Source: Planctomycetales bacterium
GTDB taxonomy: Bacteria > 4484-113
Length of the DNA stretch: 64,000 bases
Reading direction: 5' to 3'
NCBI GenBank assembly: GCA_037441675.1
Contig: JBBIRS010000001.1
Span: forward strand, 224,001-288,000
Made by a program: the position numbers and the translations under genes. Positions within the stretch are counted from its first letter, which is position 1. Each line of letters opens with the position of its first letter. Shown in pieces: positions 3,577 through 58,977 of the stretch. The notes beneath the pieces were generated by a model. The model was not told the DNA's origin, searched no databases, and saw only the letters and a program-made list of their open reading frames with translations.

Positions 3577-3615
3577 ATCTATTTCGCGGAATAAGGCATA
3601 AATGTGATCTGAATT

Positions 3616-4611: not shown

Positions 4612-4687
4612 GCAATCCTATGTTAAACTATACTGTTTTTAATGTTGCTGAAATTAGGTTTAATTTATAGCTTTAATAATCATTGAA

Positions 4688-5755
4688 ATGTTACTTTTAA
4701 GAAGGGATGACAAAGTGAAGCCTTTGAGAGACAAAAATGGATTCACGCTAATAGAGTTGCTAGTGGTAATCTCGGTGATTCTCATCCTCGTTGGAATAGC
4801 AGTTCCCGCCCTGAATAAGGCTAGAACTTCTGCTCGTAACGCTGAAGTTAAAGCTGGTATCAACGAAATACATCAGGCTCTTTCCCAGTATTCTGTGGAC
4901 AATAATGGCTTCTTTCCAGGTATGCACTGGGTAGTTATGCCGGATTCAACTGGTCGTAGGTATTCCGGGACTCTATATTCAGGCTCAGCTCTTCTTGGGG
5001 GAACACCGGATTTTGGAAGCGATTTGGAGCAGAAACTCTTTGAGGTTCCCACACCTGATAATCCGCAAAGGTATCTTAGCGACGGAGTGACACCTGATCC
5101 AGCGCGAGTTGATGCTTTAGTTGAAGCGGGTTATCTTTTAAGTTACCCTGCAAATCCTTTCTTGAGAGTTGGTGGTAGAAGCCAAAGGCAAATGTCCAAT
5201 CTTTTTTACTTCAGGGCAGATCCCGAGTCGGGTCCGGTGTTCACCTACACGCCTAACCTTTACGATTGGAACAGATATGCGACGTTTGAGAACACAACTA
5301 TGCGTGCGGACTATGAACATCACGGTCGGGGTCACTTCACCTATATCCCAATAAATCCGGTTCACCCAATGGGGATAGATTACATTAACGACTGGGATAC
5401 CTTGAACAATATTTCCGATCCTGCTGAGCAAAACCGATTAAAGAGCCAGTTTTATCGCAATGTAAGGGCGTTCATTCTCATCGGTTGGGGTGCAACCAGA
5501 GCGGATGATTCCGTCGCCAAGGGCTTTTCCGTTAAATACTACAATCGTGACATAGGTGGCTTTGACTTTGACAATTCTCTAGATATTGACCCAGTAGAAT
5601 CTTCCATCCAGAATCTCATTAGATTTCATATGGACGAGACTGGTCAAATCGGTGGACCAAATGTTGGTGCCTACGGCGCTCCTGACGTTGATGGAATTCC
5701 CATCATTGATTCAGGTTTGTATGGAGCGGCAATAATAATTTCATCAGGCTTGTAA
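4688..5755 (+). CDS. Large GspG-like (pseudo)pilin
   Basis: KNG/FTLIELLVVISVILILVGIAVP; ARNAEVKAGINEIHQALSQYSVDNNGFFP; GYLLSYPANPF; exact start uncertain. Confidence 0.85.
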   Translation: MLLLRRDDKVKPLRDKNGFTLIELLVVISVILILVGIAVPALNKARTSARNAEVKAGINEIHQALSQYSVDNNGFFPGMHWVVMPDSTGRRYSGTLYSGSALLGGTPDFGSDLEQKLFEVPTPDNPQRYLSDGVTPDPARVDALVEAGYLLSYPANPFLRVGGRSQRQMSNLFYFRADPESGPVFTYTPNLYDWNRYATFENTTMRADYEHHGRGHFTYIPINPVHPMGIDYINDWDTLNNISDPAEQNRLKSQFYRNVRAFILIGWGATRADDSVAKGFSVKYYNRDIGGFDFDNSLDIDPVESSIQNLIRFHMDETGQIGGPNVGAYGAPDVDGIPIIDSGLYGAAIIISSGL

Positions 5756-5770
5756 AAAGGTAGATATATT

Positions 5771-6712
5771 ATGGGCGAGAAGACTAAGAATGGTTTTACC
5801 TTAATAGAGCTTTTAGTAGTCATAGTGATAATAGGTATGATTGCTGCGATAGCTATTCCTTCGTATCAGAAGGTTCGGATTAAAGCAAGGGAAAGTGAAG
5901 TTGCCAAGAATTTGGGCACGATTAACCTAGCCCTGTCTCAGTTTGGTGTTGACCACAACGGCTTCTATCCGTACCGTGTAAGCGCAGTGGATAACGCCGG
6001 AAATGTAATCACCACCTCCGATTTGGATGGTCTTTATCCACTGGGAATTTTCGGTGGCGTCAAAGTCTTGGATGATACCGGGGCGCTTAGAAGTACGTAC
6101 GTTCAGAATGGTTTTGTCCAGCCTATGTTTCCGGATGATAACTACTATCTTTACTTTAACCAATACACAGACCCTTTGGTCGCTTTGGGTTATCTAGCCA
6201 ACTATCCTAGGAATCCCTTCTTTCCCCGTGATGACCGACCGATGGGCAGTATTATTTGGGCATTCTCTGGTTCTGATTTAACCGTTCCTTCACGCTCCGT
6301 TGTGGTAACACCGGGTGATTTTGTATATACCTTTAATATGGGTGATCCCGTATCACCAGGTGGTCCAGGAGGAACTGCAGGCTCCGATGAGAGAGAAGAC
6401 CCAGATTCTACTATGCCCAACGCTGAAAGCTACAGTGTTGAACTTCCTAGTGGAGCTACTTTGAACTTTAGGCTTGATTTGATTGACTCGTATCAGCTAT
6501 GGGCGTATGGTAATTTGCCTATGAATGGTCCTTTTTGGGCAGTTTATGAGAATAATGATTACGCCCCTCCACAAAGAAGGGTTGAACCAAGAAGGGATTT
6601 TAACGGCAACGGATACCGTGATGCCTTTGAGGCAGGTATTATTTTATACTATTCCGCAGGTGGCAAATTCTACGAACAGGCAACTTCTGCGGGAGGAAAG
6701 ATTGTCTTTTGA
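5771..6712 (+). CDS. Large GspG-like (pseudo)pilin
   Basis: KNG/FTLIELLVVIVIIGMIAAIAIP; KARESEVAKNLGTINLALSQFGVDHNGFYP; GYLANYPRNPF. Confidence 0.88.
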   Translation: MGEKTKNGFTLIELLVVIVIIGMIAAIAIPSYQKVRIKARESEVAKNLGTINLALSQFGVDHNGFYPYRVSAVDNAGNVITTSDLDGLYPLGIFGGVKVLDDTGALRSTYVQNGFVQPMFPDDNYYLYFNQYTDPLVALGYLANYPRNPFFPRDDRPMGSIIWAFSGSDLTVPSRSVVVTPGDFVYTFNMGDPVSPGGPGGTAGSDEREDPDSTMPNAESYSVELPSGATLNFRLDLIDSYQLWAYGNLPMNGPFWAVYENNDYAPPQRRVEPRRDFNGNGYRDAFEAGIILYYSAGGKFYEQATSAGGKIVF

Positions 6713-6758
6713 TTTATTGATTGGAAAATAACAATTCACAAAATTGGTGGTGTGAACT

Positions 6759-7826
6759 ATGAAAGCCTTAGAGAATACTGTTAAGAGAGAAATGGGGAAA
6801 AGCCCTCTTAGGGGTTTTACCCTCTTAGAGATGCTTGTGGTAATTGGAATTATCGCCATACTCGTCACGGTGATGGTTCCGATAGTTCGTGGTGCGAGGG
6901 AGAAAGCAAAGGACGCCGCGGTAAAGGAGTACTGCTCAGCGATTGAGCAGGCTCTTGCAAGCTTTGCGTTAGCGCATGATGGCAATTACCCAGGAGTTGC
7001 ATTAGATGTGATGGCGCCATATCCAATACATGCGCTAGGTGATCCTGCCCTTTATCAGGGTAACGAGACGCCTCCTGGCTCTGTTGTGACCGGAGTAATT
7101 GGCGGAACGGGCTCCGCCATTCCTTCCACCAGTAGCGTTTATCAGTTGTTAAAGCAGGTAAAGGATACTCCTTTAGCGGGTAATTTGAATACACCAAGGT
7201 ATTTTGATTCTTTGATAGCTAGAGGTGCAATTGATGAATTTCCGAGAAACCCGTTTAAGAAATCTACTGGTCAGGAAGTTTCTAACAGAATGATTAACAT
7301 CTTCCGCTTTGACGGCTTTCAACCTCCTAATCCGCTTACAATTCCTCAAGACTTAGCAAATATTAACCCCTATCTATTGGTGAATCCTCTAGCGGATTTA
7401 AGTGTCCAGCCAGCGCCCGGGGCAGTTCCCGAAGCTGTAGGTAGTGTCTTTGCAGGCAGAATCAGGCTGTACGATTCCGCCCCAGGTGATGCCAGAAACG
7501 AGTGGAACTTTTATTTTGACCCTGACAGATACTTTGCGCCAGGCGATTTTGCCTATGTTCCAATCCTTAGCCTCACTAATGCCCCACCAATAGATAATCC
7601 ACAAACCCTGGAAAATGACAGATACACATGGGGAACTTTGGTTACAGGTTATATGCTATTCGGATATGGCTGGCAGGGGAACAAAACCAGTCAGTATGAA
7701 AAAGAGAAGGAGGAGTTTGGTAGAACTGGACTTCCGGGCTTTGGTGCTCAAGGGGTTGACACCCCATATGAGCAGGCGGTTTATGCCCTGTTTAATGGCG
7801 CTGTCTACTTTAGTAAAAGACCTTAA
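6759..7826 (+). CDS. Large GspG-like (pseudo)pilin
   Basis: LRG/FTLLEMLVVIGIIAILVTVMVP; AREKAKDAAVK...ALASFALAHDGNYP; GAIDEFPRNPF. Confidence 0.85.
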   Translation: MKALENTVKREMGKSPLRGFTLLEMLVVIGIIAILVTVMVPIVRGAREKAKDAAVKEYCSAIEQALASFALAHDGNYPGVALDVMAPYPIHALGDPALYQGNETPPGSVVTGVIGGTGSAIPSTSSVYQLLKQVKDTPLAGNLNTPRYFDSLIARGAIDEFPRNPFKKSTGQEVSNRMINIFRFDGFQPPNPLTIPQDLANINPYLLVNPLADLSVQPAPGAVPEAVGSVFAGRIRLYDSAPGDARNEWNFYFDPDRYFAPGDFAYVPILSLTNAPPIDNPQTLENDRYTWGTLVTGYMLFGYGWQGNKTSQYEKEKEEFGRTGLPGFGAQGVDTPYEQAVYALFNGAVYFSKRP

Positions 7827-7842
7827 CCTTGTCTAGCTTGTT

Positions 7843-9576
7843 ATGAAAGAGCAAAATACATCTCTTATGCCTAAAGCACGTGGATTTACCCTCATTGAGA
7901 TGATGGTAGTTCTTCTTATTACATCCATCGTGCTTCTGATTCTTGGGGCTCTCAGTAAAGCCACTTTTGATATTCTGCGCGCCGGTGAAAGTCGCGCTCA
8001 ACTTACTCGTAACGCTACCTTGGCAATTGATTATCTTGCAAGAGATATTGAAAGCGCTACCGCCATACCCAGGATGGATGATCGTGATCTAAATGGTGTT
8101 CCAGATAATGACACGGTTGCTGGGTATGGTTCTGATGCCAGATGGGTAGTTGGCTATAAGGTCGGTGATAATTACTTTATACCTTCGAGTTTCTTTATGA
8201 GTGAAGCCTGGTCAGACCATCTAAAAACTCTACACGCATCAGCGTATCGTGTGGACTTGAGCGGTGGGGTCATATATGAAGAACTATCCCCGCCAAAAAA
8301 CATTCGGATCCAGGGTGGGCGAGTCGCTAGCTACACATCTTACTTCCGTCTTGCAATTCCTACTACCCAAGAGAGTAATCATCCCTACCACCTTTCATCT
8401 TATGGAAATGTGTTTCTTCAGAATAACACCTACCCCGAGAGTGTAGCAGTAGGTTTTAGAACTGAGACAGCAGTTCTTACCCAGGATATAACTCAAACCT
8501 ATCGTTCTTATGGTGAACCAGAAGTAGAATCTGCTAAGCCGCTTTCAGAGGACTATCCTTATTACTACTACCCCTTTTATAATCAACCCATAGGAACGAA
8601 TATCACCAGAATACTCTTTGAATACTTCCACGAGGTGCCTGTCTACAAAGTAAGTTCTGAAGGAAGAGTCGCATACCGCAATCTTGCAAATGGGGATATT
8701 TCCTTTGAAGATGCGCCGACATGGGCTGAAGGTGGCACTGTTGGTGTGGTCTCTAGCTCAGTCCCCATTATTGACCATTTTGAACTTAAACACGTTGATG
8801 TTGTTGATAATTTAGAAACAAGCTACAGTATCCAAGACCAATACACGGATTTATTTTACTCTAGGGCTATTCGGAATCAACCACCGTTTCCAGATCCTGG
8901 ATGGTTTGCCCCGCCGTGGGGTGATCAGTCTGCCTACAATAGCTGGAACATTGGATTCTACTGGAACAATCCTCCAGACAGCCCCGACAATCCACCGCTG
9001 GATCATTATGCCTGGACCACTGATGGTGAGTTTAGGGCAATTAGATATGATACCGCCTATCTTCTCGGTAATGATAATTCGCGCCCAACGGGAGAGGATG
9101 TTGGGAATGCTGATGGAATACCTGATGGAGATGGCAAGCCGGATGACCCGGTCCCCACATTCTGGCTACCCTATGTTCGTGCTGTGCGTATAACTATTGT
9201 TGCGACTCCAACTAGCGTAATAAATCAACGTTTGAAATTATCAGGCGTTGAACGCGGCGGAAGAACTTACTATTACACCATTGACAGCCCAGTCCCCTAT
9301 CTTGATGTGAACCGAACTGTTCCTGCATATTCCGCCAAGGACTTTTACGTCGGCGAGGGCAAGGATGTCATCGTTACACGCACTGTTTATCTAAAGAAAA
9401 CCTTTAAGCTTGACCTGATAATCGATCCAACAGACTCAAGGCTCGGTGGGCGAAGAAGGGCGGATGAAAATTTCTTCCGTGGGGTAGAGTACGCTTTTGT
9501 TGACCCCCTTGATCCAGATTCCCTTATTCCCCCTCTTACTCCATACCAGAAGTATAGGGTTCTCAATCCAAATTAG
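7843..9576 (+). CDS. Large minor (pseudo)pilin, GspJ/PilW-like
   Basis: ARG/FTLIEMMVVLLITSIVL; NATLAIDYLARDIESA; late VRAVRITIVA and TRTVYLK strands typical of PilW/GspJ. Confidence 0.82.
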   Translation: MKEQNTSLMPKARGFTLIEMMVVLLITSIVLLILGALSKATFDILRAGESRAQLTRNATLAIDYLARDIESATAIPRMDDRDLNGVPDNDTVAGYGSDARWVVGYKVGDNYFIPSSFFMSEAWSDHLKTLHASAYRVDLSGGVIYEELSPPKNIRIQGGRVASYTSYFRLAIPTTQESNHPYHLSSYGNVFLQNNTYPESVAVGFRTETAVLTQDITQTYRSYGEPEVESAKPLSEDYPYYYYPFYNQPIGTNITRILFEYFHEVPVYKVSSEGRVAYRNLANGDISFEDAPTWAEGGTVGVVSSSVPIIDHFELKHVDVVDNLETSYSIQDQYTDLFYSRAIRNQPPFPDPGWFAPPWGDQSAYNSWNIGFYWNNPPDSPDNPPLDHYAWTTDGEFRAIRYDTAYLLGNDNSRPTGEDVGNADGIPDGDGKPDDPVPTFWLPYVRAVRITIVATPTSVINQRLKLSGVERGGRTYYYTIDSPVPYLDVNRTVPAYSAKDFYVGEGKDVIVTRTVYLKKTFKLDLIIDPTDSRLGGRRRADENFFRGVEYAFVDPLDPDSLIPPLTPYQKYRVLNPN

Positions 9577-9739: not shown

Positions 9740-12700
9740 ATGCTAGGCTTGTGGATAAAAAGGGATACACAAGGCGGGTTTGTTTTGCTCGCCGTAATTG
9801 CTTTCATAGCGATACTTCTCCCAATTGTCATTGTTATTTTATCAATCGTCGCTTCGGAAACCCACTCAGTTGGGGAGACAATTAAAGGCTCAAAGGCTGA
9901 GACCGCTGTGGATATGGCTATTGCTGGTGCCATTTCCTTAATAATCCAGGAAAAGCAACTTCCCAACTTTTGGGTAAGTGTAACACAACCCAACAATGCG
10001 ATAATCGTGGATGATGGTTTTGGTAATCGTCGTAATGATATTGCCAATAATGGCGCGGGCTTAGACGGTATTTATGGAACCGAGGACGATTACTGGATTG
10101 GCCCGAGAAAGGATAGGAGTTTCCTTCCGGGAGATGACCCGGACGACCCCCGAAACTACAACTACGATTTCCGATATCTGAATAATCACGGCCCAGCATA
10201 CTTGGCGCAAAGATGGGCTTTCTCCCTTGAGCGTAATCCCTTTTTCTTCGTGAGAACACCTCAGGCAGCCCCGGGTTTCATCCCTATTGAGCTATACAAC
10301 CAATTCGCTGCAGTCCGATCAGATGACGATGATGATGGTGTACCGGAGGGCTTCATCCCGGATGAGCTTGATATGCTTCTAACTCCGGGATACTACCCCA
10401 CCGCAATGCCAAGAAACGGTCCATACAACATAGACCTTACATCTCCCACCATTTTCCGTGATATGCTCAACTATCGTGTTCAGCCTTATTATGGCATCAC
10501 TGAGAATCTAGAGGAGGGACCTCTTCCCTCAAAATTTACGCGCTCTTATGCTTCTATAACAGATGAAAATGGACGCCTGAATCTAAATATATTCGTCAAA
10601 AAATTACGAGTATGGGCTCCTGAAGATAGCTCTTATGATAGTAGTGCACTGGATGGTCGTGCGACTTCGGATTTTAATGGCAACCAGATCCCAAATGAAT
10701 CAGGCTGGCATTGGATAGACAACCCGCTCTTCCCTGATAGGGATACGACATTAAAAGCCGACGGAACTCCCATTGATTTTGGAAGGTTAAGTAATAGTCC
10801 GAACCCCGCTTTAAGATTTCCAATAGATGGACAGGATGATATTGCAATAGCAGAACTCGGTGAAACTGTCCAGCATCTCTACTCAGAAGATTGGTATCTT
10901 TCAGCGAAGAAAAGTCTAAGTATGCTAGAAGCTTTACCTGGTATTGATCGTGAAATTGCTGAAAACATCCTTCAAACACTTAATCCCGTCTTTCCTAGCG
11001 ATGTTCAAACAAATTGGCCGCCTACGTCGAATAACGAGCGACCAGATGTGCCTAATCTCACTCCAGCCCTGATAGCAATTGACGTAACGACGGGTTTGGG
11101 AGGGGAAATAACTGATGTTGCTTGGGATTATTCACGGACTCAAGAGGACGACCTTCCTCTTCCTCAGCCCAAGCCATTCAACGATGTTAAGGAGCTATTA
11201 AATGTTCCTGGCGTGACCGTCACAAAGTACGAAAGGCTTAAGGACTTTGTGACAGTCTTTTCCTACGACACCAACGTCATTCAGAACTACATATCAGATG
11301 TTTCTTCTACGGTTGATCCAATCAATCCTCCGGATCTACCCCCGGGTTCCACTCGTAGAGAGATACCAGAATACTTAATTGATAGGGACAGTGTCCCAGA
11401 TTTGCGTTACGACTTAAATAAGCCTCTTCAGGATACATCTCTTTCCGCCCTAAGGGAAGAAGCGGACATACTTTATAAACACATTTTTAATCATTTACCT
11501 CTCCCAAACTTTCAGAAAATCTCGCTTCCAGTAATAGATAGGGCAGGAAGGGGTCCAAGCGATCACCTTCAGTCTGGTTTTAGAAGTCCATGGAATAACT
11601 CGTGTCCATATAATGTAGCGGAAACCGGCCATGAATATCCGTTGGAAGATGGCAGGGATTATGCTGCTCTTGACCCACCATTTTCCAGAGATTCAGCTCT
11701 ATCCATTCTCCTGTACCGTCACGGATTACGTCAAGAAACAGCCTATCACGGTTATGGTGAGCCGGGGCGTGAAGTGCGACCTGGTATTCCTGTTCCTGGT
11801 ACTCGCTCCTTTATTCCAATTGTTGAACCAATAATAATTCCAGGCTTTCTTAGCCTATATTTCCAGCCATCTTTCATTCCAGACCTTGAAACAACGCAAG
11901 AGTATGCAGAAATTCCGCCTCATACCTTTAGCTCAGTTGCTGATTTGCTTGAGGTTCCACTCTACAAGTTTAGCCAATTCAGTGTTGATATCATGGCAGA
12001 TCCACCCTCTGCCGCTCTTTGTCGCACTCGTGGTAACGATGAGGTCACCGTTCGTTACTATCTAACACTCTCTGATGTGCTTAAGGCTGGTGAATACAAC
12101 GACAACGGAACGCCCAGTGATCCAACCGACGATTCTCTGGCTTTCACTTATGAGATTGCCTGGGACTACAACAATGATGGCGTTCCGGAAGCTGAGATAC
12201 CTTTAGCTCTGAACGATACTCTTCGCCTGATAGGTCCACCGCCAACCCCGGAAAGACCTGCGGTTCTCACAACCTTCGATCAGGCGACAGGGCAAAGATA
12301 TATCACCTTTGATTGGACTTTCCAAGTTCAGGATGTTCCGAAAAAGGATAAGACTCTTGCGGGAACTTCAAGTGGAGATTTTGCCTATGATGCTTTCGGT
12401 AATCCATTCATAATAGGGCGAGCCCTCGGTGTAAAAGCTAGAGGAACTTCTGAGGAGACTCAAGCGGACGCTATAGTCCGAGTATACTTGCAGGAAAACT
12501 GCACCATCCCTCCACCCTTGAAGGTAAGTATCCTAGCTGTCCGTCAAAGTGAAGATACATTTATGCTGATGTCTTCAGTCGCCGGTGGAGTAGAGGATCC
12601 CAATCCGCTGAGAATCTATGATTGGGATATTGATGGCACACCTACGGACATAAATGGCACTTATCCGCCACAACCAAATGGTCGTGACCCAAGGACTGCG

Positions 12701-15700
12701 GTTGTTAGCCTCAATTCTCCGATTGTTAGACTAACCGTTTACGATATGTATGCGGAAGGTCTACCACCGGGAATTAGAATGCACCCGCCTGATAAAGTGA
12801 TACCACCAGGCATTTGGACAGCGATGTGGTTACCAAACGGCAGGCTTAATCCGGTATTTGGGGCAAATTGGGATCTACTTCCCGAGTCGAAGGACACTGA
12901 TGTCGGGGAAGTTGAACTGGTCGGAACTATTCCGCAAGTGCGTGCAGAAGTCGCTGTTGAACCTCCATCCATTGGCAGGGGTGATAACGTAGTAGTCCAC
13001 GTTGGTGCCTATGGCGGTAGGAGCCCCTACGATATTGATGTTCAAATTACCGGAGTAACATCTGGGACAGTGCTCTCCTATACCGCAAATGATTATGAAA
13101 GCAACACGCTCACCTTTGAAATTGGTCCCTTTACAGTTGAAGATGATTACAATGTAGCCCTTACCGTTACTGATTCCACTACTCCCATACCAACGGTAGA
13201 TGTTGATACAACATCACTAATTGTAGGCACAGCGGGAAGTCGTGGTCAGAGGTTTACGAACGTTCCCCAAATGGTTGCTTCTATCAACCTAGAGGAATTA
13301 GACTTGCCCAACAAAGGCTTCCGCGCCACTATGAGCGTAAGTGGCGGTAGAGGTGGATTAGGCTACTACTGGCAGGTATTTGATGAGAATGGACAAATAG
13401 CCCGCGACATAGAAGGTCGTGAGATGGTTTCCAACGAGCCCGCACCGGTCTTTCAATTTGACCCAAGTGCCGCGTCTGATGGCGTTTATATGGTAAAGGG
13501 GATGGTGATTGACCAGGCGGACGTTAATCCATACGTGGCATCCAATGTAACTATGGCGACGGATTCAGCGATGGTTGTCATTGCCTCAAGTGGTAGCGAC
13601 TTTGAAAACGAACCGATGGCTATTCTCTCTGCAACACCTCCGGGAAATGACGCTAGTGCCTTGGATACAACTCCTCAACCACCACCCGCAGTTTATGGCG
13701 CGGGGCCAGAGCCTATAATTACCACAGAAGCTGGCATACCCGGCGTAAGCCCTGAGATTGCTGGAGTTGGCTCAAGCATTGAAATACGAGGCTACAACTT
13801 TAACTCTAACCCAGCGAACAACATAGTTCACTTTGGTGGCGGAGTAAGTGCGGAAGCATACTCCGTGGAGGACGACCCAAGTTACGCCGGTCCACCTCCT
13901 GTAAGGCAAATTCTACGAGTTATTGTTCCTGATGGAGCTCGCTCCGGTTGGCTTTACGTCACTGTAAACGTTGGTGGTAATGGTGGCGTTTCAAATAGTG
14001 TTTTCTTCCAAACCCGTTTCGTGGTGAACTTTGATTTGATAGCTTCGGTTAGCCCGCAAGTGAATCACAGATACACCTACGAACTGGACTTTCAGGGTGA
14101 TGGAATCTATGACGTCCTGATTGACACCTCATCAACTGGAACCAATCCTCGTCAAATGCGTCACGAAAATAATCTTTCTCTCCAGCATGACTATGCTTCG
14201 GATGGTTTTGGAAACTACCAGGCGACATTGAAAGTAACAGATACAACTTCCGGTAGGGTGGAGATTGGTCATCAGCTGATTCAAGTGCGTAACCTAAGAC
14301 CCGTAATGACAAGTTCGAGTAATGCCCCGGAAGCTTTCGGCTTAATTACAAGCCTCATTCCTTCCATAGTGGAGAGATACCCAATACCAGGCTCTGGACT
14401 TACCGTGAGAACCTCTACAGGCGGTATGTCATCCTTATCAGGCATTCGCTATAAGTGGAATATAGACGGCAATGCTCGTGGAAGCTCAGTTCGGGCAACT
14501 TATCCAAGTCCAGCCAATCCGGGAAGAACCTTGAACGTGAACTTGTTTGCGACTGTCTCCGCTGATGCCACCTTTGCCAGCATTGGTATTCCAATAAAGT
14601 ATTTTGCCAACCTCAGATTCAACTTTACTACTACCGATACTGACATATTTAATATCACCTTAGATGAAGATGAAAGCCAGACCATCCTTGAATGGGACTT
14701 TAATGGTGATACAACGCCTGATTACATTAGTTCAGCAGGAGCAATAACCGCAAGCACCTATACAGCTCTTGCGAAAGCAATGGCGACTGCTGACCAAACT
14801 ATATTCAACACCATTGGCGACTACACAGGTTTTCTTAGGGTTTCCACTCGTGCAATTGTTACCGATAACAATAATAACCAGTATCCTGTAGCGATCACCT
14901 TCGCTACACCGCTTAATCTTCCCACAGTGACCATTAGCAACGTACTCAACACTTTATATCTTCCCTCCCTTGGCAATGACACTGATCATCTAATCTCTGT
15001 AACTGCGGTGGCGGAGGAAATTGACTCTGCCACAGGTGTTACAAGGTTTATTTCCGCCACGGATACAATTCACATTCCAAGCGCGAACAATCCGCTAAAT
15101 AACGTATTTGCATATTCAGGAACGGAGCCCCCATATAGCATTGGTAATACAGCGAGCACCATCAACTACACATTAATCGGAATATACGGTTCAGGCGCGC
15201 CATTGAATTTCTGGGCTGATATTAATACGGATGGATACTTTGAAATAGGTCAGATAAACTACTTTAATCCCCAGTCAGTTTCAAGAGTTACAGCCCAAAA
15301 TGATATTAATCGCTTGAACCCAGGTGCTACTAATTCTTTCCCGACTGAGCTGCCTGGTGTCAACTTCACCTTAATAAGCGTGCAAACCCCAATTGTAGCC
15401 GCAAAGGGAGTATACACTTCCTACGCACTGATCAAGGACGCCGGGGGAGTGGGTAGTGTTGGTGGGAGAAGCAGGACGCAAACCTACGCCTTTGAAACAC
15501 AAGAAATATTCGTGGGCGGTGGCAGAAGCGGAGGCGGTGGCGCATTAAGGCTCGCGGTTGATATTTTCCTTAATCCTCTGGTTGGCACGACAACCCAAGC
15601 GGTTGACTTCCAGTCCTTCGTCTCTGGTGGAACTCTGCCTTACAGTTACCAGTGGACAATTAGGCGGGTAGATACTGGTACAATAATCAACTTTGAAAAT

Positions 15701-18289
15701 CCAACGCAAGCGAATATACCAAATCCCGTCTTTGTTGCTGCAACCGATGCTATTGACGAATCTACAAGTGTTGGCTTTCCACTAGAGGGTGATTATGAAG
15801 TTCAGCTAACCGTTTTTGATGCCTTCGGTGCGGTAGCTGGAAGCAAGAGAGTTATTTTAACTCTAAAATCAGTTGCCCTGTCCGCCCAGCTAATGGCGGT
15901 TCCGCCATCCGCAACAGTTGATGAGCCGGTTAACTACATAGTCTATATTGATGGTGGTCAACCGCCATATCAAGTGACTATTTCCTACGACGATCCGAAC
16001 GATGCTAGGGTGGACACGGTAACAACTTGGGGAAGTTACGCTTTCTTCTCCCACGTCTATGACGCAGTATGGCTGGATAGAAGCACTCCAGCCAACGGAA
16101 GATACGATGACCCAGAAGATGGTGTTGACCCATACATAATCGTTACAGATAGTTCCACTCCACCTCAGAGAGTAGTTGGAATAGAGGGCGACCCAGACTT
16201 CTCCATTAACGCAGTTCAGAAGGTATTGGTGGGAGAGAGGCTTCCTCTTAATATTACATTGGTGGCAGCGCCAACAAGCGGTAATGATAATTTTGATATT
16301 CAAGTTAACTACTCGGTAGCAGGCGGAAGGAAATTCTCAAGTGGTTCTTTAGGTCAGTTAGGTGGTTTTGGTGCAGGCAGAAACAGGTTCAGCCTCGGCT
16401 CTGAAGACGACTACTTCGTGACAGTTGCTCTGATTGAAGCTGGTGGCTCGACGCCATCAGGCGGGTTTAGGCAAAGTGGGTTCGGGGGATTATTTGGTGC
16501 AGGTTTTGGAAGGTTCTCCGACGTTACGTTCCGAACTCAGGCTACAACCATAATCAACCCATTAGGGGATGACGGTATCTTTATGAATGGAGATTCTGGT
16601 GAGGTTTACGACCCAATTTACTTCCATATACCTCAACCTGGCAACTACATAGTTATGGCTTTTGTTAGTGATGGCGCTGGCGAATGGGCGGTTGACCAAA
16701 CTAGAATTTACTCTGAGGGTTATCTATCTCCTGCGCCCACCTCTACCACAAAAGCTCCAAAGGTGCGAGTTGATGGGGATGGTAGACCCTTGCACGCCGT
16801 TCGCATTTGGACTGATCCTCTCTATGTTGATAGTCGCGGCGGAGACTACAATAGTAATGACTACAGATTGAGAGAGGCTGATATACAGGTATTTGGCGAC
16901 CTACTGACTGTTGATCCAAGCCCGAACTTCCTCTCCCCAGCAATGTTTGCGGCGAAAGATCCGAGTGACGCAAGCCCATACAGTATGAGCTACCTCCTTA
17001 ATCCGGAAGACCCAACGCCAGTAGATTTCTATGATACGTTCACCATAGGTAGAGTGAATATCAACACAGCCTCAGAAGAAGTTCTCGCAGCGGTGTTTGG
17101 CAAGATAATAAAGCGAAGGGGTTATTATGAGGAAGATGATACCGCTCAGGATCCGCCGAGATGGAAGCGAGGCGATAGAAATTATTCCGAGGACGTTTAT
17201 CTTTCTCGCGAGGAGGCTCGTGCCTTAGCGCGAGCAGTTGTGGAATACAGGAATGCTTATTATGATGCCTATAAACCGAGAGTGTCTGGTGGTGGCTTTT
17301 TCTACGGTCATGGCACTTCCAATAATCCTTACCAAAGTGGAGACATCAGAGTTGACCATCTACCGGTAATTGGTCCATGGGATGGCGTTAATCCTAAGGT
17401 TTATGATGTGAATAGTCGTGACGCTGAACTGCCAGATTATCGAGATATAACAGTAATCAACACATGGGACAACTACCGCGGAAACTACTATAACCTTGAG
17501 TCTACCACGGGAAGCTTCCCGCTTAAATTCTACGCGCCTAGCGATATTGCAGTAGTTCGCGCCCAGCGACCAGGTGAATCCGATGAGGCTTATGCTAAAT
17601 ACCTTAATGACACACTCGCTAACAACACCGAGTTAACCGATCCCTTGGGCATAGATACCACCGCAGGTTTTGATGCCAGACACTACTTCGTCTATGACAC
17701 TAGCCAGGGAGAGGATCGTTCGGATGCGCGCAACCGAATAGCAATTATAAACAGCAATGGCGAGAGCGGTTACACCTTCATTCCCAACCCGCCGTTCCAG
17801 TCTATTTTTGACCTTTACAAGGTTGTGGGCGTGTCTGATCCTGACCTTTACGCTTTGGTTGACCCCAATCCTCGTTCCTTTGATCTGTACCAAAACGGTG
17901 ACGGTATTAAGTTTGATCCAACAACATTTTTCACTGTCAATGAACGCACCCTTTCAGGCCCAAGTCTCTTCAGGTATTCAGAAATCTGGGATTGGCGGGA
18001 GAATAGATTCCTCCCCACCGCAAATTATCTTGACGACATAGCCCCCTACATCACGACAAGAACATACATGTATCGTATTCTAGGTATTGGTGGAGTTGAT
18101 ATCTCTGGTTTAACTGAAAATAATCCAGTTACCCTAGATAGAATTGATCGTGACATGAGTAAAGAGATAATAATAGACGCAGGTAATATGCGACTACCTT
18201 CGGAAAGCTCGATATTTGGTACAACTATCAGAAGTGGAGGTCCATACACCGTCGTTTACGAGGAGCGTTCTTCTGGCGCATTAGAGTAG
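9740..18289 (+). CDS. gspK: Giant GspK/PilX-like tip (pseudo)pilin with inserted PKD/Ig-like and IPT/TIG-like repeats, 2849 aa
   Basis: QGG/FVLLAVIAFIAILL lacking E5; ITDENGRLNLN; LEALPGID; FNDVKELLNVPGVTVTKYERLKDFVTVFS; then near C-terminus GRVNINTASEEVL, ARALARAVVEYR, PFQSIFDLYKVVG, IAPYITTRTYMYRILGIG. Confidence 0.85.
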   Translation: MLGLWIKRDTQGGFVLLAVIAFIAILLPIVIVILSIVASETHSVGETIKGSKAETAVDMAIAGAISLIIQEKQLPNFWVSVTQPNNAIIVDDGFGNRRNDIANNGAGLDGIYGTEDDYWIGPRKDRSFLPGDDPDDPRNYNYDFRYLNNHGPAYLAQRWAFSLERNPFFFVRTPQAAPGFIPIELYNQFAAVRSDDDDDGVPEGFIPDELDMLLTPGYYPTAMPRNGPYNIDLTSPTIFRDMLNYRVQPYYGITENLEEGPLPSKFTRSYASITDENGRLNLNIFVKKLRVWAPEDSSYDSSALDGRATSDFNGNQIPNESGWHWIDNPLFPDRDTTLKADGTPIDFGRLSNSPNPALRFPIDGQDDIAIAELGETVQHLYSEDWYLSAKKSLSMLEALPGIDREIAENILQTLNPVFPSDVQTNWPPTSNNERPDVPNLTPALIAIDVTTGLGGEITDVAWDYSRTQEDDLPLPQPKPFNDVKELLNVPGVTVTKYERLKDFVTVFSYDTNVIQNYISDVSSTVDPINPPDLPPGSTRREIPEYLIDRDSVPDLRYDLNKPLQDTSLSALREEADILYKHIFNHLPLPNFQKISLPVIDRAGRGPSDHLQSGFRSPWNNSCPYNVAETGHEYPLEDGRDYAALDPPFSRDSALSILLYRHGLRQETAYHGYGEPGREVRPGIPVPGTRSFIPIVEPIIIPGFLSLYFQPSFIPDLETTQEYAEIPPHTFSSVADLLEVPLYKFSQFSVDIMADPPSAALCRTRGNDEVTVRYYLTLSDVLKAGEYNDNGTPSDPTDDSLAFTYEIAWDYNNDGVPEAEIPLALNDTLRLIGPPPTPERPAVLTTFDQATGQRYITFDWTFQVQDVPKKDKTLAGTSSGDFAYDAFGNPFIIGRALGVKARGTSEETQADAIVRVYLQENCTIPPPLKVSILAVRQSEDTFMLMSSVAGGVEDPNPLRIYDWDIDGTPTDINGTYPPQPNGRDPRTAVVSLNSPIVRLTVYDMYAEGLPPGIRMHPPDKVIPPGIWTAMWLPNGRLNPVFGANWDLLPESKDTDVGEVELVGTIPQVRAEVAVEPPSIGRGDNVVVHVGAYGGRSPYDIDVQITGVTSGTVLSYTANDYESNTLTFEIGPFTVEDDYNVALTVTDSTTPIPTVDVDTTSLIVGTAGSRGQRFTNVPQMVASINLEELDLPNKGFRATMSVSGGRGGLGYYWQVFDENGQIARDIEGREMVSNEPAPVFQFDPSAASDGVYMVKGMVIDQADVNPYVASNVTMATDSAMVVIASSGSDFENEPMAILSATPPGNDASALDTTPQPPPAVYGAGPEPIITTEAGIPGVSPEIAGVGSSIEIRGYNFNSNPANNIVHFGGGVSAEAYSVEDDPSYAGPPPVRQILRVIVPDGARSGWLYVTVNVGGNGGVSNSVFFQTRFVVNFDLIASVSPQVNHRYTYELDFQGDGIYDVLIDTSSTGTNPRQMRHENNLSLQHDYASDGFGNYQATLKVTDTTSGRVEIGHQLIQVRNLRPVMTSSSNAPEAFGLITSLIPSIVERYPIPGSGLTVRTSTGGMSSLSGIRYKWNIDGNARGSSVRATYPSPANPGRTLNVNLFATVSADATFASIGIPIKYFANLRFNFTTTDTDIFNITLDEDESQTILEWDFNGDTTPDYISSAGAITASTYTALAKAMATADQTIFNTIGDYTGFLRVSTRAIVTDNNNNQYPVAITFATPLNLPTVTISNVLNTLYLPSLGNDTDHLISVTAVAEEIDSATGVTRFISATDTIHIPSANNPLNNVFAYSGTEPPYSIGNTASTINYTLIGIYGSGAPLNFWADINTDGYFEIGQINYFNPQSVSRVTAQNDINRLNPGATNSFPTELPGVNFTLISVQTPIVAAKGVYTSYALIKDAGGVGSVGGRSRTQTYAFETQEIFVGGGRSGGGGALRLAVDIFLNPLVGTTTQAVDFQSFVSGGTLPYSYQWTIRRVDTGTIINFENPTQANIPNPVFVAATDAIDESTSVGFPLEGDYEVQLTVFDAFGAVAGSKRVILTLKSVALSAQLMAVPPSATVDEPVNYIVYIDGGQPPYQVTISYDDPNDARVDTVTTWGSYAFFSHVYDAVWLDRSTPANGRYDDPEDGVDPYIIVTDSSTPPQRVVGIEGDPDFSINAVQKVLVGERLPLNITLVAAPTSGNDNFDIQVNYSVAGGRKFSSGSLGQLGGFGAGRNRFSLGSEDDYFVTVALIEAGGSTPSGGFRQSGFGGLFGAGFGRFSDVTFRTQATTIINPLGDDGIFMNGDSGEVYDPIYFHIPQPGNYIVMAFVSDGAGEWAVDQTRIYSEGYLSPAPTSTTKAPKVRVDGDGRPLHAVRIWTDPLYVDSRGGDYNSNDYRLREADIQVFGDLLTVDPSPNFLSPAMFAAKDPSDASPYSMSYLLNPEDPTPVDFYDTFTIGRVNINTASEEVLAAVFGKIIKRRGYYEEDDTAQDPPRWKRGDRNYSEDVYLSREEARALARAVVEYRNAYYDAYKPRVSGGGFFYGHGTSNNPYQSGDIRVDHLPVIGPWDGVNPKVYDVNSRDAELPDYRDITVINTWDNYRGNYYNLESTTGSFPLKFYAPSDIAVVRAQRPGESDEAYAKYLNDTLANNTELTDPLGIDTTAGFDARHYFVYDTSQGEDRSDARNRIAIINSNGESGYTFIPNPPFQSIFDLYKVVGVSDPDLYALVDPNPRSFDLYQNGDGIKFDPTTFFTVNERTLSGPSLFRYSEIWDWRENRFLPTANYLDDIAPYITTRTYMYRILGIGGVDISGLTENNPVTLDRIDRDMSKEIIIDAGNMRLPSESSIFGTTIRSGGPYTVVYEERSSGALE

Positions 18290-18530: not shown

Positions 18531-21500
18531 ATGAAGTATTGGGCATTTAGAAGTTTGTACTTTACAGTGGCTATCCTGTGTGGAGTACTCGTACACACCA
18601 TTACCTCACTTGCTGCGACTACTTCTACTGTTACTTCAGTTGAAGTAAAGGCTCTTGTAGACCGTGACCTTGTAATCGTAAAGAGTGAAGGAGCTGAGAT
18701 TAAACCCCAAAGCGTCGTAAAGCTTTACCCAACCAGGATTGAGACCCTATTGCCTAACGTAAAACTCAAAGCGGTCAACCCACAGGTTAAGGGTACGACG
18801 CTTGTGAAAAATGTGCTAATCGCTGGAGATACTGACACAGCTGTTCTAGTGGTTTATTTAGACGTCAAGGGCAAGGTTGACAAGGATGCTTACAGATGGA
18901 CACATTTGAAGAGTGGAGTTTCAGTTCTTGAGGTTTTTTACCCGCTATCAGACCGTTCACCACTGACAAGCGCAATGCTAGATGGTAAAGAAACCCCGAA
19001 AGAGCCAGTAAAACCTATCGTTGAAACCCCTACCCAGCTACCACCTCAAGTACCACCTAGCGAAACACCACCTACCACTCTTATTGAACCTGCGCTACCG
19101 CAAGCAAAGAAATATATTGAGCTTGTTTATTTCTCAACCGTGGAGAAGAAGCTTACTATTAAGGGAACTGACTTAAGTGGTTATCAGCTTGAGGTTTCTA
19201 AGTTTCCTCCGCAAATCCAAATTACTTTTCCAGGCACCGACACTTCTCCCACCGTCTTGAAGGAAGTCATCAAGAATTTCGGTGCAATACGAGCAATTCT
19301 AGTTTCCTCAACGTCTATTGAAGGCGGCTTCAATACGCGCGTTACTCTGAATTTTGTTAACTCTTTGAATATAAAGTATGAAGAGAATCTTTCAGCGGAT
19401 AATACAACATTAGTCATTTCACTTCCCTTGGCGGACAAAGTTCTCGTTCCAGAGAGCGCTCAAAAGCCTGAGGAAGTCAAACCTTTAGCTTCTGCTGAGC
19501 CAACCGCCGAGAATGGATCAGTTCGCCCTGAGGAGCCAACAGTGGCGGAGGGGCAAGCGGCGGAGGAGAAGCCAGTGGAAGAGGAAAAGGCGGAAGAGCC
19601 AGCGCCAGTTCCTCCGCTTGAAGTAAAACCGAAAAAGTCCTTCAAGGTTCCTCCTGTTGAAAAAAAGGTTGAAGAGGAAAGAGAGGCGGTGGCTCAACAA
19701 GAGCCAACCCTATCCGCTTCTCTTCAACCAACTGAGGAGGGTATGATTAGCTATATAAACTACGATCCATCTACCCTCACTCTCACCATAACAACCACTA
19801 AAGAGGCAACACTCAATATCGTTCCTGTTACATTTCCACGTGGCTATAACATCTTTGTAGACCTTCCACCCTCTCCCAGTGTCTTGGACTACATCTTCAA
19901 GAATGATGCAAATATCCGTTACCTCAGTGTTGCAAAAGTTCTTGAAGATGAATCCGCATTCACTAGGATTATCATCACATTCGCAAATGATTCGCAACTC
20001 GGCTTTCAGGACACATCCACGCAGGTTGGCACAAATTTTGTGTTAAGGCTTGCTGAGGTTCCACCTCAAGCGCCTAAACCAAAGTTTTCGTCGGGAAGAT
20101 TTGGCTCTGAAATGTCATCGGAAGATGAGGGTCAAGGTATATCAGAAACTACTTCTGTAAGAGAATCTGAAGAAATTCCAGGAGTTGATGATGTATTCGC
20201 TGAAGAGGTGGAAACCGACAAAGAATACCCGAGAGTGCCGGTGAAAGTGGGTCCTGCTGAGGGAGAGTACGAACTTCCCGAATTTCCCGGGATGGAAGAG
20301 AGGCTTTCCGATGTGCTGGTTAACCTGCCTGCGCCCTCTGGACTTTCCGTCTACCAGGTGCTTTACCTGATGTCCAGCTTGGCTGGTATTTCAATCATTA
20401 TAGATCCATATATCACTGACCCACCCATCGGAGGAAGAACACAAAGACGGGTGTTAGATCCGCTTCAGTTTGAAGAGGATGGTGCTCCAATTGGCTTTAG
20501 GGAGGCTTCTCAGTTTTATGCCCTCATCACCGAGCCGGGAACGGTCAGAGGCAATTTTGAAAATGTTCCTTGGGATACCGCTCTAGACATTATTCTTGAG
20601 GTTCACCAATTTGAAAAGATTGTATACCGCGATCCCAATGACCCCAACGCGAAGCCGGTAATTCTAATCACGAGTAGAGAGAGGAAGGAGCAAGAAATTA
20701 AGGGTGCTAATGTCATAGATTTCTATCAGCTTCACTATGCTGATCCCGCGGAACTTTACCTTATTCTCTACAATCTAGACTTACTCCCATCCATTAACGT
20801 CGGTTGGTATGTATATACCAACAGATCTACACGTGGCGGATTTGGCGGAGGCTTTGGTGGTGGAGGCTTTGGTGGTGGCATCGGCGGAGGCTTTGGTGGT
20901 GGAGGCTTTGGTGGTGGGGGATTTGGCGGAGGTGGTTTCAGTGCTAATATCCCACCCACTTCAACTGTTAGCCAAGGTTATCTTGATGCCAACTCCGCTC
21001 TTGCTGGAAGTTACTTTGGAGATGCTCCATTACAGGGTGCTGGACCTGGTTTCGGTGCTGGTGGTGGAGCAGGTGGTGTAGGCGGAGCAGGCGCCGGTGG
21101 ATTTGGTGGAGTAGGTGGTGCTGGTGCTGGAGGTGCTGGAATTGGGTTCATTCCACTTCCCACAGCAAAAAGTGGGTTAATAGTGATGCGAGGTTCTCGT
21201 GAAACTCTGGATGTCGTGAAATCCATTATTCGTAAAATTGACAAGCCACCAAAGCAGGCTGCAGTGAAACTAACTGTTTATCAGGTTACTGAAAATCCAC
21301 AGAAAGTATACGGTCTTGTGCGTGCAGCAGCACCAAGTGGAAGAACTAACATTACCTACGACCAAGGTGGGTTAGACCTCTCCTTTGTTACCAGGCCAGA
21401 GCAAGGCGGATTACCCGCCGGTTTCCGTTCATTCCGCGTTCCTCACAATATCGGTGCTGTATTTGACGCTCTCGCTGCTGACCGTAAGGCAAAGGTTGTT

Positions 21501-21989
21501 ACAGAAACCGAACTAGCGGTTATTGATGGATTTCCTGCTGTGCTTTCAGTTGACAGGACGCGTGGTAACTTCCGTCAAAGCATCGCCTTTGATCAGAATG
21601 GCAATGCAATTAGGACATCAACCTTTGACGAAATCACCGTTGGAACGAATATTACTTTCACGCCAAATATTGATGACTGGGGTAGAATGACCCTCTTCCT
21701 CGTGATTAGTCTCAGCAGTTTTGATGGTCCACCGCAAGTTTCACCTGATGGTCTTGCGACTTTTCAACCTACGACAGATACGAACCTTCAGACCTTCTTT
21801 AGACTTATGGACGGTGAGACCGCTATGATAGGCGGTCTCCAGACTCGTCAGGTAACGGACGAAATATTCGCAGTTCCATTCCTTTCAGAACTTCCATTCG
21901 TAGGTTCACTATTCCAGCATCACTCAAAGAGCGAGGAGAATAGTTACGTCTTTGTAACGCTGACGGTAAATCTAGTTGACGATAAATAA
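18531..21989 (+). CDS. pilQ: Secretin (PilQ/GspD family) with N-terminal AMIN-like repeats and Gly/Phe-rich insert in N3
   Basis: Signal peptide; ENVPWDTALDIIL (N0); QLHYADPAEL...LIVMRGSRETLDVVKSIIRKIDKPPKQ (N3); DGETAMIGGL, VPFLSELPFVGSLF secretin signature. Confidence 0.92.
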   Translation: MKYWAFRSLYFTVAILCGVLVHTITSLAATTSTVTSVEVKALVDRDLVIVKSEGAEIKPQSVVKLYPTRIETLLPNVKLKAVNPQVKGTTLVKNVLIAGDTDTAVLVVYLDVKGKVDKDAYRWTHLKSGVSVLEVFYPLSDRSPLTSAMLDGKETPKEPVKPIVETPTQLPPQVPPSETPPTTLIEPALPQAKKYIELVYFSTVEKKLTIKGTDLSGYQLEVSKFPPQIQITFPGTDTSPTVLKEVIKNFGAIRAILVSSTSIEGGFNTRVTLNFVNSLNIKYEENLSADNTTLVISLPLADKVLVPESAQKPEEVKPLASAEPTAENGSVRPEEPTVAEGQAAEEKPVEEEKAEEPAPVPPLEVKPKKSFKVPPVEKKVEEEREAVAQQEPTLSASLQPTEEGMISYINYDPSTLTLTITTTKEATLNIVPVTFPRGYNIFVDLPPSPSVLDYIFKNDANIRYLSVAKVLEDESAFTRIIITFANDSQLGFQDTSTQVGTNFVLRLAEVPPQAPKPKFSSGRFGSEMSSEDEGQGISETTSVRESEEIPGVDDVFAEEVETDKEYPRVPVKVGPAEGEYELPEFPGMEERLSDVLVNLPAPSGLSVYQVLYLMSSLAGISIIIDPYITDPPIGGRTQRRVLDPLQFEEDGAPIGFREASQFYALITEPGTVRGNFENVPWDTALDIILEVHQFEKIVYRDPNDPNAKPVILITSRERKEQEIKGANVIDFYQLHYADPAELYLILYNLDLLPSINVGWYVYTNRSTRGGFGGGFGGGGFGGGIGGGFGGGGFGGGGFGGGGFSANIPPTSTVSQGYLDANSALAGSYFGDAPLQGAGPGFGAGGGAGGVGGAGAGGFGGVGGAGAGGAGIGFIPLPTAKSGLIVMRGSRETLDVVKSIIRKIDKPPKQAAVKLTVYQVTENPQKVYGLVRAAAPSGRTNITYDQGGLDLSFVTRPEQGGLPAGFRSFRVPHNIGAVFDALAADRKAKVVTETELAVIDGFPAVLSVDRTRGNFRQSIAFDQNGNAIRTSTFDEITVGTNITFTPNIDDWGRMTLFLVISLSSFDGPPQVSPDGLATFQPTTDTNLQTFFRLMDGETAMIGGLQTRQVTDEIFAVPFLSELPFVGSLFQHHSKSEENSYVFVTLTVNLVDDK
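20835..21148 (+). repeat. Coding low-complexity (GGGF)n / GA-rich tract in the secretin, incl. a 35-nt direct repeat with 39-nt period
   Basis: ggcggaggctttggtggtggaggctttggtggtgg at 20844 and 20883; translates RGGFGGGFGGGGFGGGIGGGFGGGGFGGGGFGGGGFS, then GAGGGAGGVGGAGAGGFGG. Confidence 0.9.
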
Positions 21990-24937: not shown

Positions 24938-24979
24938 CTTAGAGGATTAAAAGGGTATAATAAAAACAGGGAGAATAAA

Positions 24980-58897: not shown

Positions 58898-58977
58898 CAA
58901 ATGTTCACCTCCTACAAAATCTTACAATCATTCTGGACGCAAAATACCCTTTTGGGAGGCTACTCCCCGTCACAAAT

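Follow-up and report, generated by a model that had tools for sequence, protein, structure and literature searches.

The giant gene and its setting

The 64,000-nucleotide window analysed here is a stretch of the genome of a Planctomycetales bacterium (assembly GCA_037441675.1, contig JBBIRS010000001.1) that contains a pilus-type gene cluster with one giant gene. This open reading frame (9740..18289, plus strand) starts with ATG, has 0 internal stops and encodes 2849 aa; it is a candidate for a giant K-type (GspK/PilK-like) minor pilin. Directly upstream (2086..9576, +) lie six oversized prepilin-type genes (496, 331, 355, 313, 355 and 577 aa) with N_methyl matches, the GFTLIE motif and a glutamate at +5 (Glu5). 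Downstream are a secretin of 1152 aa (18531..21989, +; PF00263, 86.1 bits) and, at 22186..25888 (+), a PilM-PilN fusion of 652 aa together with two conserved reading frames (269 and 302 aa) that family scans placed in no family. The giant gene is intact and conserved, occupies a fixed place in its operon, encodes a class-III-like N-terminus without Glu5, and matches GspK remotely and in collinear order. In our view, the product is probably a Glu5-less apical minor pilin of the GspK/PilK type, whose fold is predicted to be split by ~1,915 aa of TIG/PKD-like domains and which would serve as its own tip adhesin.

The N-terminus consists of a leader (aa 1-13, ending in Gly) and a long hydrophobic to amphipathic helix (aa 14-73; both within 9740..9958, +), which AlphaFold2 predicts as a helix over aa 13-73. 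It reads ...QGG|FVLLAVIAF, with Gly directly before the long hydrophobic helix. The residue at +5 is Ala, and the protein therefore lacks Glu5. A class-III-type N-terminus of this kind, with Gly at -1 and a hydrophobic alpha1N segment but without Glu at +5, characterizes K-type pilins. The first, sequence-only reading of this DNA had proposed such a signal, and the relatives bear it out: Glu5 is present in 0 of the 22 with an intact N-terminus, while the Gly before the hydrophobic helix is conserved. All seven neighbouring pilins carry Glu5, so the giant protein is the sole Glu5-less member of the cluster. Strong hydrophobicity is confined to aa ~8-45; outside it, a single 19-aa window, beginning at aa 690, lies barely above the hydropathy cut. 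PilK homologues are described as invariably devoid of Glu5 and apical (PMC13533445).

The GspK-like pieces fall into two blocks. In the N block, a strand with the DENGRLNLN motif (aa 265-290, 10532..10609, +), which includes ITDENGRLNLN (aa 273-283, nt 10556-10588), is the candidate last pilin-sheet strand before the insert, as judged from profile alignment and predicted pairing. It is followed by the first helix-hairpin-helix (HhH) subdomain, which resembles T2SSK_1st in profile alignment (HhH1, aa 388-511, 10901..11272, +) and contains FNDVKELLNVPG (aa 480-491, nt 11177-11212) and KDFVTVFS (aa 501-508, nt 11240-11263). The C block begins with aa 2347-2436 (16778..17047, +; RPLHAVRIWTDP...), continues with a second, T2SSK-like HhH subdomain (HhH2, aa 2437-2519, 17048..17296, +; GRVNINTASEEVL at aa 2437-2449, nt 17048-17086), supported by profile and structural alignment, and ends with C-terminal strands (aa 2749-2849, 17984..18286, +) that contain TTRTYMYRILGIGG, DRDMSKEIIID and YTVVYEE and are predicted to complete the pilin sheet in cis. 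ITTRTYMYRI spans aa 2771-2780. The motif positions quoted in the sequence-only reading were confirmed, apart from the start of FNDVKELLNVPG, which had been given as 11174 instead of 11177, a slip of 3 nt. The distance from aa 508 to aa 2437 is 1,928 aa, as against the ~1930 aa proposed. The sequence-only reading had described GspK as a protein of ~300-350 aa with adjacent motifs, and the GspK matches listed are indeed mostly 286-393 aa long, with PF21687 and PF03934.

Remote homology to GspK

For a GspK profile, we removed near-identical, fused and truncated rows from the 108 relatives of E. coli K-12 GspK and used 27 of them; the profile was aligned by hhalign with column ranges of the giant-family alignment. 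Column shuffles served as null and covered giant aa 388-511, 2427-2519 and 2749-2812 as well as controls from the middle region. HhH1 (aa 388-511) matched GspK 122-213 with a probability of 93.9% and a score of 51.9 (null maximum 17.6), and aa 2427-2519 matched GspK 202-300 with 92.3% and 46.8 (null maximum 18.8). Lower values were obtained for aa 8-95 against GspK 2-93 (70.8%, score 35.5) and for aa 246-289 against GspK 59-113 (56.6%, score 30.1). Both controls from the middle of the protein stayed within the null, with scores of 14.8 and 10.9. The matches are collinear, in the order leader/alpha1, NLN strand, T2SSK_1st and T2SSK. The two HhH subdomains thus appear to be remote homologues of T2SSK_1st and T2SSK, arranged as in GspK; their scores exceed the null maxima by a factor of 2.5-3, and the profile alignments indicate that the likeness of the giant protein to GspK is real but remote.

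The C block also has a more direct relative. BLASTP aligned residues 161-271 of a 366-aa GspK from Verrucomicrobia with giant aa 2353-2453 (E 1e-5, 33% identity over 112 aa). This is the closest protein of canonical length to the C block and could bridge profile building. It comes from a metagenome-assembled genome (L030, 9521-10621, +), is a bona fide GspK with a T2SSK_1st match of 63.2 bits, and lies in an F-pilin-pilin-J-K operon. Among the named ESM-Atlas clusters, those nearest to aa 1-520 consist of Planctomycetota proteins (250-500 aa) and have T2SSK_1st in 87-99% of their members (score 0.92, 158 shared features), which we treat as a lead only.

On marginal evidence, the C block may open with a second, degenerate T2SSK_1st-like piece (aa 2347-2436). 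The segment adds 10 score units in the alignment to the GspK profile. Alone, aa 2340-2436 scored 15.9 against the GspK profile (null 18.2), within the null, and marginally, 22.8 (null 18.3), against one Verrucomicrobia GspK. The idea of a duplicated alpha-domain found no echo in a comparison of aa 2340-2436 with aa 380-520, which detected no similarity (13.0 vs 17.9 for the null).

Predicted packing of the two blocks

The sequence-only reading had suggested that structure prediction would show whether the N and C blocks close into one GspK domain. Prediction of aa 30-520 and aa 2380-2849 as two chains gave an interface score (ipSAE) of 0.81, against 0.00 for the best of three controls; the runs shared at least 46% of their contacts, and the partner predicted local distance difference test (pLDDT) values were 52-59. 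In the model, strand 273-276 pairs antiparallel with 2780-2777, the NLN turn (277-281) contacts the NINTA helix (2439-2448), HhH1 (394-400, 502-513) contacts HhH2, with 502-513 against 2448, and alpha1 (49-72) lies under the C-terminal strands. The interface residues of the C block are 2772-2787, 2804-2817 and 2835-2840. The best-defined contacts between the blocks in the model are those that a GspK-type topology requires. The C block, with HhH2 and the C-terminal strands, is thus predicted to pack onto the N block, with alpha1, the NLN strand and HhH1, as one pilin-type unit. Since the structure of GspK has been solved, the two-chain result may be a recall of the fold; as a prediction, it indicates likeness to GspK, not function.

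Several results weigh against this assignment. The curated GspK models remain below their cut-offs: T2SSK_1st (PF21687) matches aa 472-507 over profile positions 69-105 of 107 with 18.6 bits (cut-off 26.2), T2SSK (PF03934) matches aa 2439-2455 over positions 1-17 of 63 with 16.1 bits (cut-off 24.2), and the NCBIfam GspK equivalog NF037980 reaches 31.3 bits (cut-off 130). The best Pfam match, HHH_3 at aa 479-505 (25.2 bits), outscores T2SSK_1st and is itself under its cut-off. Among 14 relatives, T2SSK_1st matches 6 and T2SSK 8, with 0 above cut-off. In a control with 14 unrelated genomes, PF03934 found matches in 12, Bacillus and archaea among them, so that the 17-residue T2SSK match is a generic HhH signal. 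In the profile alignment, the C-terminal strands (aa 2749-2812 vs GspK 253-320) reached 2.5% and a score of 20.8 (null maximum 17.1), which is noise level.

The structural results include similar reservations. The complex score expresses the model's own confidence, and its calibration, in which the 0.81 mark is reached by 116 of 157 complexes of solved structure and by 2 of 215 mismatched pairs, holds only roughly because our own 17-row alignment was used. The blocks predicted singly by AlphaFold2 had mean pLDDT values of 45.7 (aa 1-760, 26 rows) and 48.4 (aa 2330-2849, 29 rows), and the models are fairly confident just for the long N-terminal helix and the HhH units (pLDDT 76-86 at 385-414 and 483-500). 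Because these single-block models are poor, the pilin fold of the giant protein remains predicted. Foldseek detected no PDB structure at E <= 0.001; XcpX and GspK appeared only at E 3.8-7.8, for the N block. A sequence search of the PDB found one unrelated 174-aa chain (E 0.8), and a search with the 17-row family profile found none. We also compared the confident part of the C block with 48,161 chains by VIA-align, in which matches stand out from Z 8. All matches fell below this value: ComEA (Z 7.5), Tex (Z 7.0) and a ComEA-related protein (Z 6.1) came first, followed by GspK (3ci0_K; Z 6.0, root-mean-square deviation 2.6 over 75 residues, HhH part only) and XcpX (5vtm_X; Z 5.4, 3.2 over 79 residues). 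The closing of the two blocks into one domain is predicted by the two-chain run, while single-block models and Foldseek give it no support. Of the families named for a HMMER check, TIG passed its cut-off, and T2SSK and the protein's own PKD match did not; T2SSK_1st and NF037980 stayed below theirs as well.

These results bear on a different reading, which we consider improbable, in which the protein is a giant envelope protein anchored in the inner membrane outside any filament, and its likeness to GspK reflects generic HhH motifs and an uncleaved signal anchor. The sub-threshold GspK models, the wide occurrence of HhH motifs and the prominence of ComEA and Tex among the VIA-align matches would agree with it. 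However, five collinear GspK matches include the leader/alpha1 region and the NLN strand, which are not HhH, and the conserved Gly without Glu5 (22 of 22 relatives), the place between pilins and secretin fixed across the phylum, and the predicted packing of the two blocks all argue for a filament subunit.

The prominence of ComEA also raises a further alternative, more doubtful still: the architecture would be the same, and the protein would be a DNA receptor at the tip, like ComEA or ComZ, whose HhH units bind extracellular DNA that is to be taken up or scavenged. Besides the ComEA match, the best Pfam match, HHH_3, is a ComEA-type motif, and a staphylococcal-nuclease-like gene (60662-61357, -) adjoins the platform and pilin genes at the far end of the window. 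However, GspK has the same HhH units and is not known to have a DNA role. The HhH units (aa 394-400, 502-513 and 2439-2455) are modelled inside the interface of the two blocks, and ~1,570 aa of TIG/PKD-like domains would be superfluous for binding DNA. A gene for an FHA/zinc-ribbon protein (61407-62453, -) also adjoins the platform and pilin genes, and both neighbours may bear on a DNA-related role of the filament.

The inserted array

The sequence-only reading had described a single insertion in the GspK fold. Instead, there are at least four expansions relative to GspK (aa ~96-245, 290-387, 512-2426 and 2520-2748), the largest of which, ~1,915 aa (512-2426), starts after HhH1 and ends at HhH2. 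It opens with a conserved segment that was assigned to no family (aa 512-760, 11273..12019, +), which includes a further HhH-like SVADLLEVPLYKF, has a conservation of 0.47-0.62 and does not match GspK. The C-block expansion (aa 2520-2748, 17297..17983, +) is likewise conserved and has no family match.

The main body of the insert is a beta-rich array (aa 761-2329, 12020..16726, +) in which Pfam and profile self-comparison recognize TIG and PKD-like units. An IPT/TIG-like unit had been predicted at about 13740-14010, and Pfam TIG (PF01833) indeed matches aa 1336-1424 (nt 13745-14011) with 21.4 bits, a marginal pass of the cut-off of 20.9; the relative P0017 reaches 22.7 bits in the same columns. 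The PKD/Ig-like strings that had been cited (YEIAWDYNNDG, YDWDIDG, GGTLPYSYQW, GDYEVQLTVFD and HDY..GNYQATLKVTD) are all present. PKD itself scores 18.7 bits at aa 1947-2038 (cut-off 23.5), and is above cut-off in the relatives P0016 (37.2 bits), P0034 (34.5 bits) and P0030 (40.7 bits), of which the aligned ones map to aa 2050-2162. In a profile self-comparison, about seven PKD-like units proved to be related to one another, at approximately aa 1075-1175, 1177-1270, 1428-1520, 1644-1702, 1935-2045, 2045-2152 and 2167-2324.

The calcium loops that had been proposed are also supported. For the pattern D-x-[DNQ]-x-[DN]-G, 0.44 occurrences would be expected and five are present, a count reached in 0 of 500 shuffles; four of these DxDxDG-like loops lie in the array (aa 809, 961, 1450 and 1827) and the fifth in the N block (aa 195). 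The protein has just 3 Cys in 2,849 residues (aa 622, 761 and 921), so that stabilisation by disulfides is unlikely and by calcium loops likelier. The array is rich in Thr, Gly and Asp.

Conservation and distribution

A search of 5.8 billion proteins found 16 full-size relatives of 2,703-3,627 aa with 31-67% identity, one of which carries the NCBI name 'general secretion pathway protein GspK'. In collections with one genome per species, we found 20 strong loci, all from uncultured metagenome-assembled genomes, whose records are labelled Planctomycetales, Planctomycetia, 'bacterium' or UBP7. The gene is present in 22 of the 24 species genomes of the phylum to which the window belongs, including all 13 of high quality; the two genomes without it are 77% and 62% complete. 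The genomes of this lineage are small (1.5-4.1 Mb).

The relatives are always giant, as an earlier suggestion to compare homologue sizes had left to be seen, and frames uncut by contig ends in the phylum genomes measure 2,845-3,807 aa. Identity is 0.23-0.63 per 50-aa window along the entire protein, and length differences occur at only a small number of sites (hot spots behind aa 1525-1597, 1742 and 2281). The array varies through cassette-like inserts at these fixed sites, where many relatives have an additional 240-400 residues, for example after aa 1587-1597 of P0001 in P0003, P0005 and P0007-P0010. In the relative P0023, aa 1146-1302 form a beta-propeller-like stretch (DUF5050, 24.1 bits, under cut-off).

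No canonical-size protein with adjacent N and C blocks was found in searches with aa 1-520 and with the C block. The former gave five shorter proteins (212-1300 aa) on contigs of 2-10 kb, which are probably fragments. The latter, against 1.84 billion cluster representatives, gave 23 matches, among them no ordinary GspK: 12 are at least 2,306 aa long and 11 are 125-1441 aa long, and the four short ones examined align at their own C-terminal ends and look cut or mis-started.

The sequence-only reading had named a misassembly as one of the observations that would overturn it. An assembly or gene-calling artefact that joined two or more genes has a negligible probability: apart from the unusual length, nothing speaks for it, whereas the same collinear giant frame without internal stops recurs in independent assemblies of 22 of the 24 species and in a fixed operon. 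We therefore rejected misassembly and gene fusion.

Gene complement and proposed mode of action

The gene order is kept among the 20 strong loci: the secretin lies downstream in 19 of 20, the PilM-PilN gene is present in 13 and the upstream 577-aa pilin in 14, and the loci without those neighbours are cut by contig ends. Family matches of the six upstream pilins are weak and confined to their N-termini: one is GspH-like, one PilV/GspI-like, three are GspG-like and one resembles Verru_Chthon C/HpsC. The giant gene thus follows minor pilins of the I/J type, an identity assigned to these neighbours from weak N-terminal matches only. A relationship of the giant protein itself to Verru_Chthon cassette protein A was considered and rejected, as no such NCBIfam match was found at E <= 1.

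Elsewhere in the window, a further Glu5 pilin (341 aa) lies with a platform protein of the PilC/GspF type (405 aa) at 57875..60360 (-). The source genome (1.99 Mb, 90.9% complete) has a second, ordinary-looking type IVa set on contig 7, whose pilins measure 135-163 aa. In comparison, the seven Glu5 pilins of the giant-gene system are all oversized (313-577 aa), and the whole filament, cap included, seems to be built from enlarged subunits. The genome also encodes two platform proteins and one prepilin peptidase (on contig 3) and has six T2SSE-family ATPase matches; by length, two of these frames look like assembly-type enzymes (616 and 622 aa) and four are PilT-sized (365-382 aa). The giant reading frame is the only T2SSK_1st match of the genome (21.5 bits, E 5e-4).

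Glycine-rich stretches recur in this system. In the 1,152-aa secretin, aa 753-885 (window 20787-21185) include two low-complexity stretches before the conserved core, the first Gly/Phe-rich (GGFGGGFGGGGFGGG..., 43% Gly, 10% Phe) and the second Gly/Ala-rich (41% Gly). Poly-Gly also occurs in the PilM-PilN fusion, at aa 516-561 (window 23731-23868), and a poorly conserved, FG/GFG-rich segment is found at aa ~2195-2265 of the giant protein. These stretches may be flexible linkers that span the periplasm.

The gene complement allows two views of where the giant protein acts. Tips of the GspK type face the secretin, and the protein could be the tip of a short periplasmic pseudopilus like that of a type II secretion system (T2SS), never displayed, with the array filling the secretin vestibule as a piston head, plug or cargo dock. 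Although we regard it as unlikely, this is the alternative that we take most seriously. The likeness is to GspK of the T2SS and not to PilX, three paralogues are GspG-like with further GspH-like and GspI-like N-termini, and a protein of ~313 kDa is awkward for extrusion. On the other side, arrays of TIG, PKD and calcium loops are typical of surface-exposed proteins. The cluster contains PilM-PilN, and Pfam and NCBIfam scans of the cluster proteins found no GspL, GspM or GspC family, although a genome-wide search for them was not made. The four PilT-sized ATPase frames, whose type is inferred from length, also point to a pilus. Moreover, no PilY1-family (PF05567) match that could serve as adhesin was found in the giant protein or in the 90.9%-complete genome (E <= 0.1).

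We therefore return to the giant protein as a displayed pilus tip. The sequence-only reading had seen in it an adhesin that replaces PilY1. The K position, the missing Glu5, the collinear GspK matches, the predicted packing of the blocks and the missing PilY1 match are in line with this proposal, and the curated GspK models under their cut-offs are not. By analogy with known tip pilins, the protein would be located at the tip, extruded through the secretin and engaged in adhesion.

In such a mechanism, alpha1N would insert the chain in the membrane, and the leader would be cut after Gly13. The periplasmic part of ~2,800 aa would fold before the last strands complete the sheet. The completed K sheet would then be recognised by an I-J pair, for which the PilV/GspI-like gene at 3616-4611 and the 577-aa pilin at 7843-9576 are candidates, and would seed the filament. 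With the growth of Glu5 pilins beneath, the array, a loop anchored at both ends, would be pushed out through the 1,152-aa secretin and, once displayed, would bind a ligand outside the cell. Since conservation in the array comes close to that in the pilin core, this ligand would itself be conserved. It is difficult to see how a loop of ~1,900 aa that is anchored at both ends could pass the secretin, which adds to the points against this reading.

A more elaborate form of the mechanism is put forward tentatively, as somewhat less probable than the assignment itself. The K-type cap, of 313-420 kDa, would be the largest known pilin and would merge the roles of PilK and PilY1 throughout the phylum. 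Its adhesin loop, anchored at both ends, would comprise 1,900-2,800 residues and more than 15 domains, and the cis C-terminal strand would serve as the checkpoint for its completion. The loop would then be threaded through a secretin that is enlarged and has a Gly/Phe-rich linker, and a retractile pilus would display it.

Comparison with known systems

GspK and XcpX (3CI0 chain K, 5VTM chain X; PF21687 and PF03934; NF037980) share with the giant protein an N-terminus of class III type that lacks Glu5 and follows the pattern (R/K)G(V/F)xLL, as well as an NLN strand and two HhH subdomains. The position of these subdomains between sheet strands and the supply of terminal strands in cis, as in GspK, are predicted for the giant protein; in both cases the gene comes after other minor pilins. 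In contrast, the giant protein is ~9 times longer, stays under all curated cut-offs and has at least four expansions, the largest between the two HhH subdomains, and its gene lies in a cluster of the PilM-PilN type and not with GspC/L/M.

The closest published concepts concern smaller proteins. CpaL/TadG of the Tad (type IVc) pili of Caulobacter crescentus is a pilin-like analogue of K in which a pilin-like domain at the N-terminus is followed by a large middle part, the adhesin on the tip, and the sheet is completed by a strand from the extreme C-terminus (PMC13533445). The arrangement proposed for the giant protein is similar. It differs in its length (~600 aa, with a middle part of ~470 aa), in having no GspK-type alpha-domain and in its filament class (PMC13533445). 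The giant insert is ~4 times as long as the middle part of CpaL and is made of TIG/PKD-like units. In ComZ of Thermus thermophilus and other PilK homologues with large insertions, from systems without PilY1, a module is inserted in the pilin beta-sheet (PMC8179133, PMC13533445), as is predicted for the giant protein; ComZ has a single beta-solenoid and is far smaller. We detected no sequence relation between ComZ and the giant protein.

The modular pilins PilB and PilC of Streptococcus sanguinis also display a functional module on a pilin, but the module sits on the C-terminal end of a Glu5 pilin (PMC8179133), while the extra domains of the giant protein are inserted. Modular pilins are recognized by IPR012902/N_methyl and an appended domain; the giant protein has no N_methyl (PF07963) match at E <= 1, and its domains are internal. 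The largest modular pilin in the InterPro survey measures 860 aa (PMC8179133). The PilC/PilY1 adhesins (PF05567) resemble the giant protein in size, with up to 3,500 aa in metagenomes, in their presumed job at the tip and in a C-terminal strand that licenses tip assembly (PMC13533445). PilY1 differs in that it is not a pilin and donates its strand in trans (PMC13533445), and the C-terminal PF05567 beta-propeller that defines this family is lacking in the giant protein.

Implications

The cited work states that the last strand of the PilK sheet comes in trans from PilY1 or in cis, in GspK and CpaL, and that systems without a tip adhesin often carry a large insertion in the PilK homologue before the cis C-terminal strand (PMC13533445). 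The design in which a C-terminal strand closes a large insert in cis is already published for CpaL and ComZ (PMC13533445, PMC8179133), and the concept of the tip pilin as adhesin is less novel than the sequence-only reading assumed. The concept has been published for proteins of ~600 aa; the size and the insertion site of the giant protein are new. We found no description of the giant family in literature searches, which left aside the supplements of PMC13533445 and PMC8179133.

If our reading is true, the pilin fold tolerates an internal insert of ~9 times its own size, in what is apparently a core gene across the phylum. It would stretch the size limit for tip cargo of a secretin-gated filament, and also the beta-strand-addition model of 2026, in which the last K strand licenses tip assembly. 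Since ~2,750 residues separate the donor strand from the acceptor sheet and would have to be synthesised and folded, the protein would be a natural extreme test case of this model. The giant-gene cluster would then likely be the surface-contact organelle of an uncultured lineage with small genomes.

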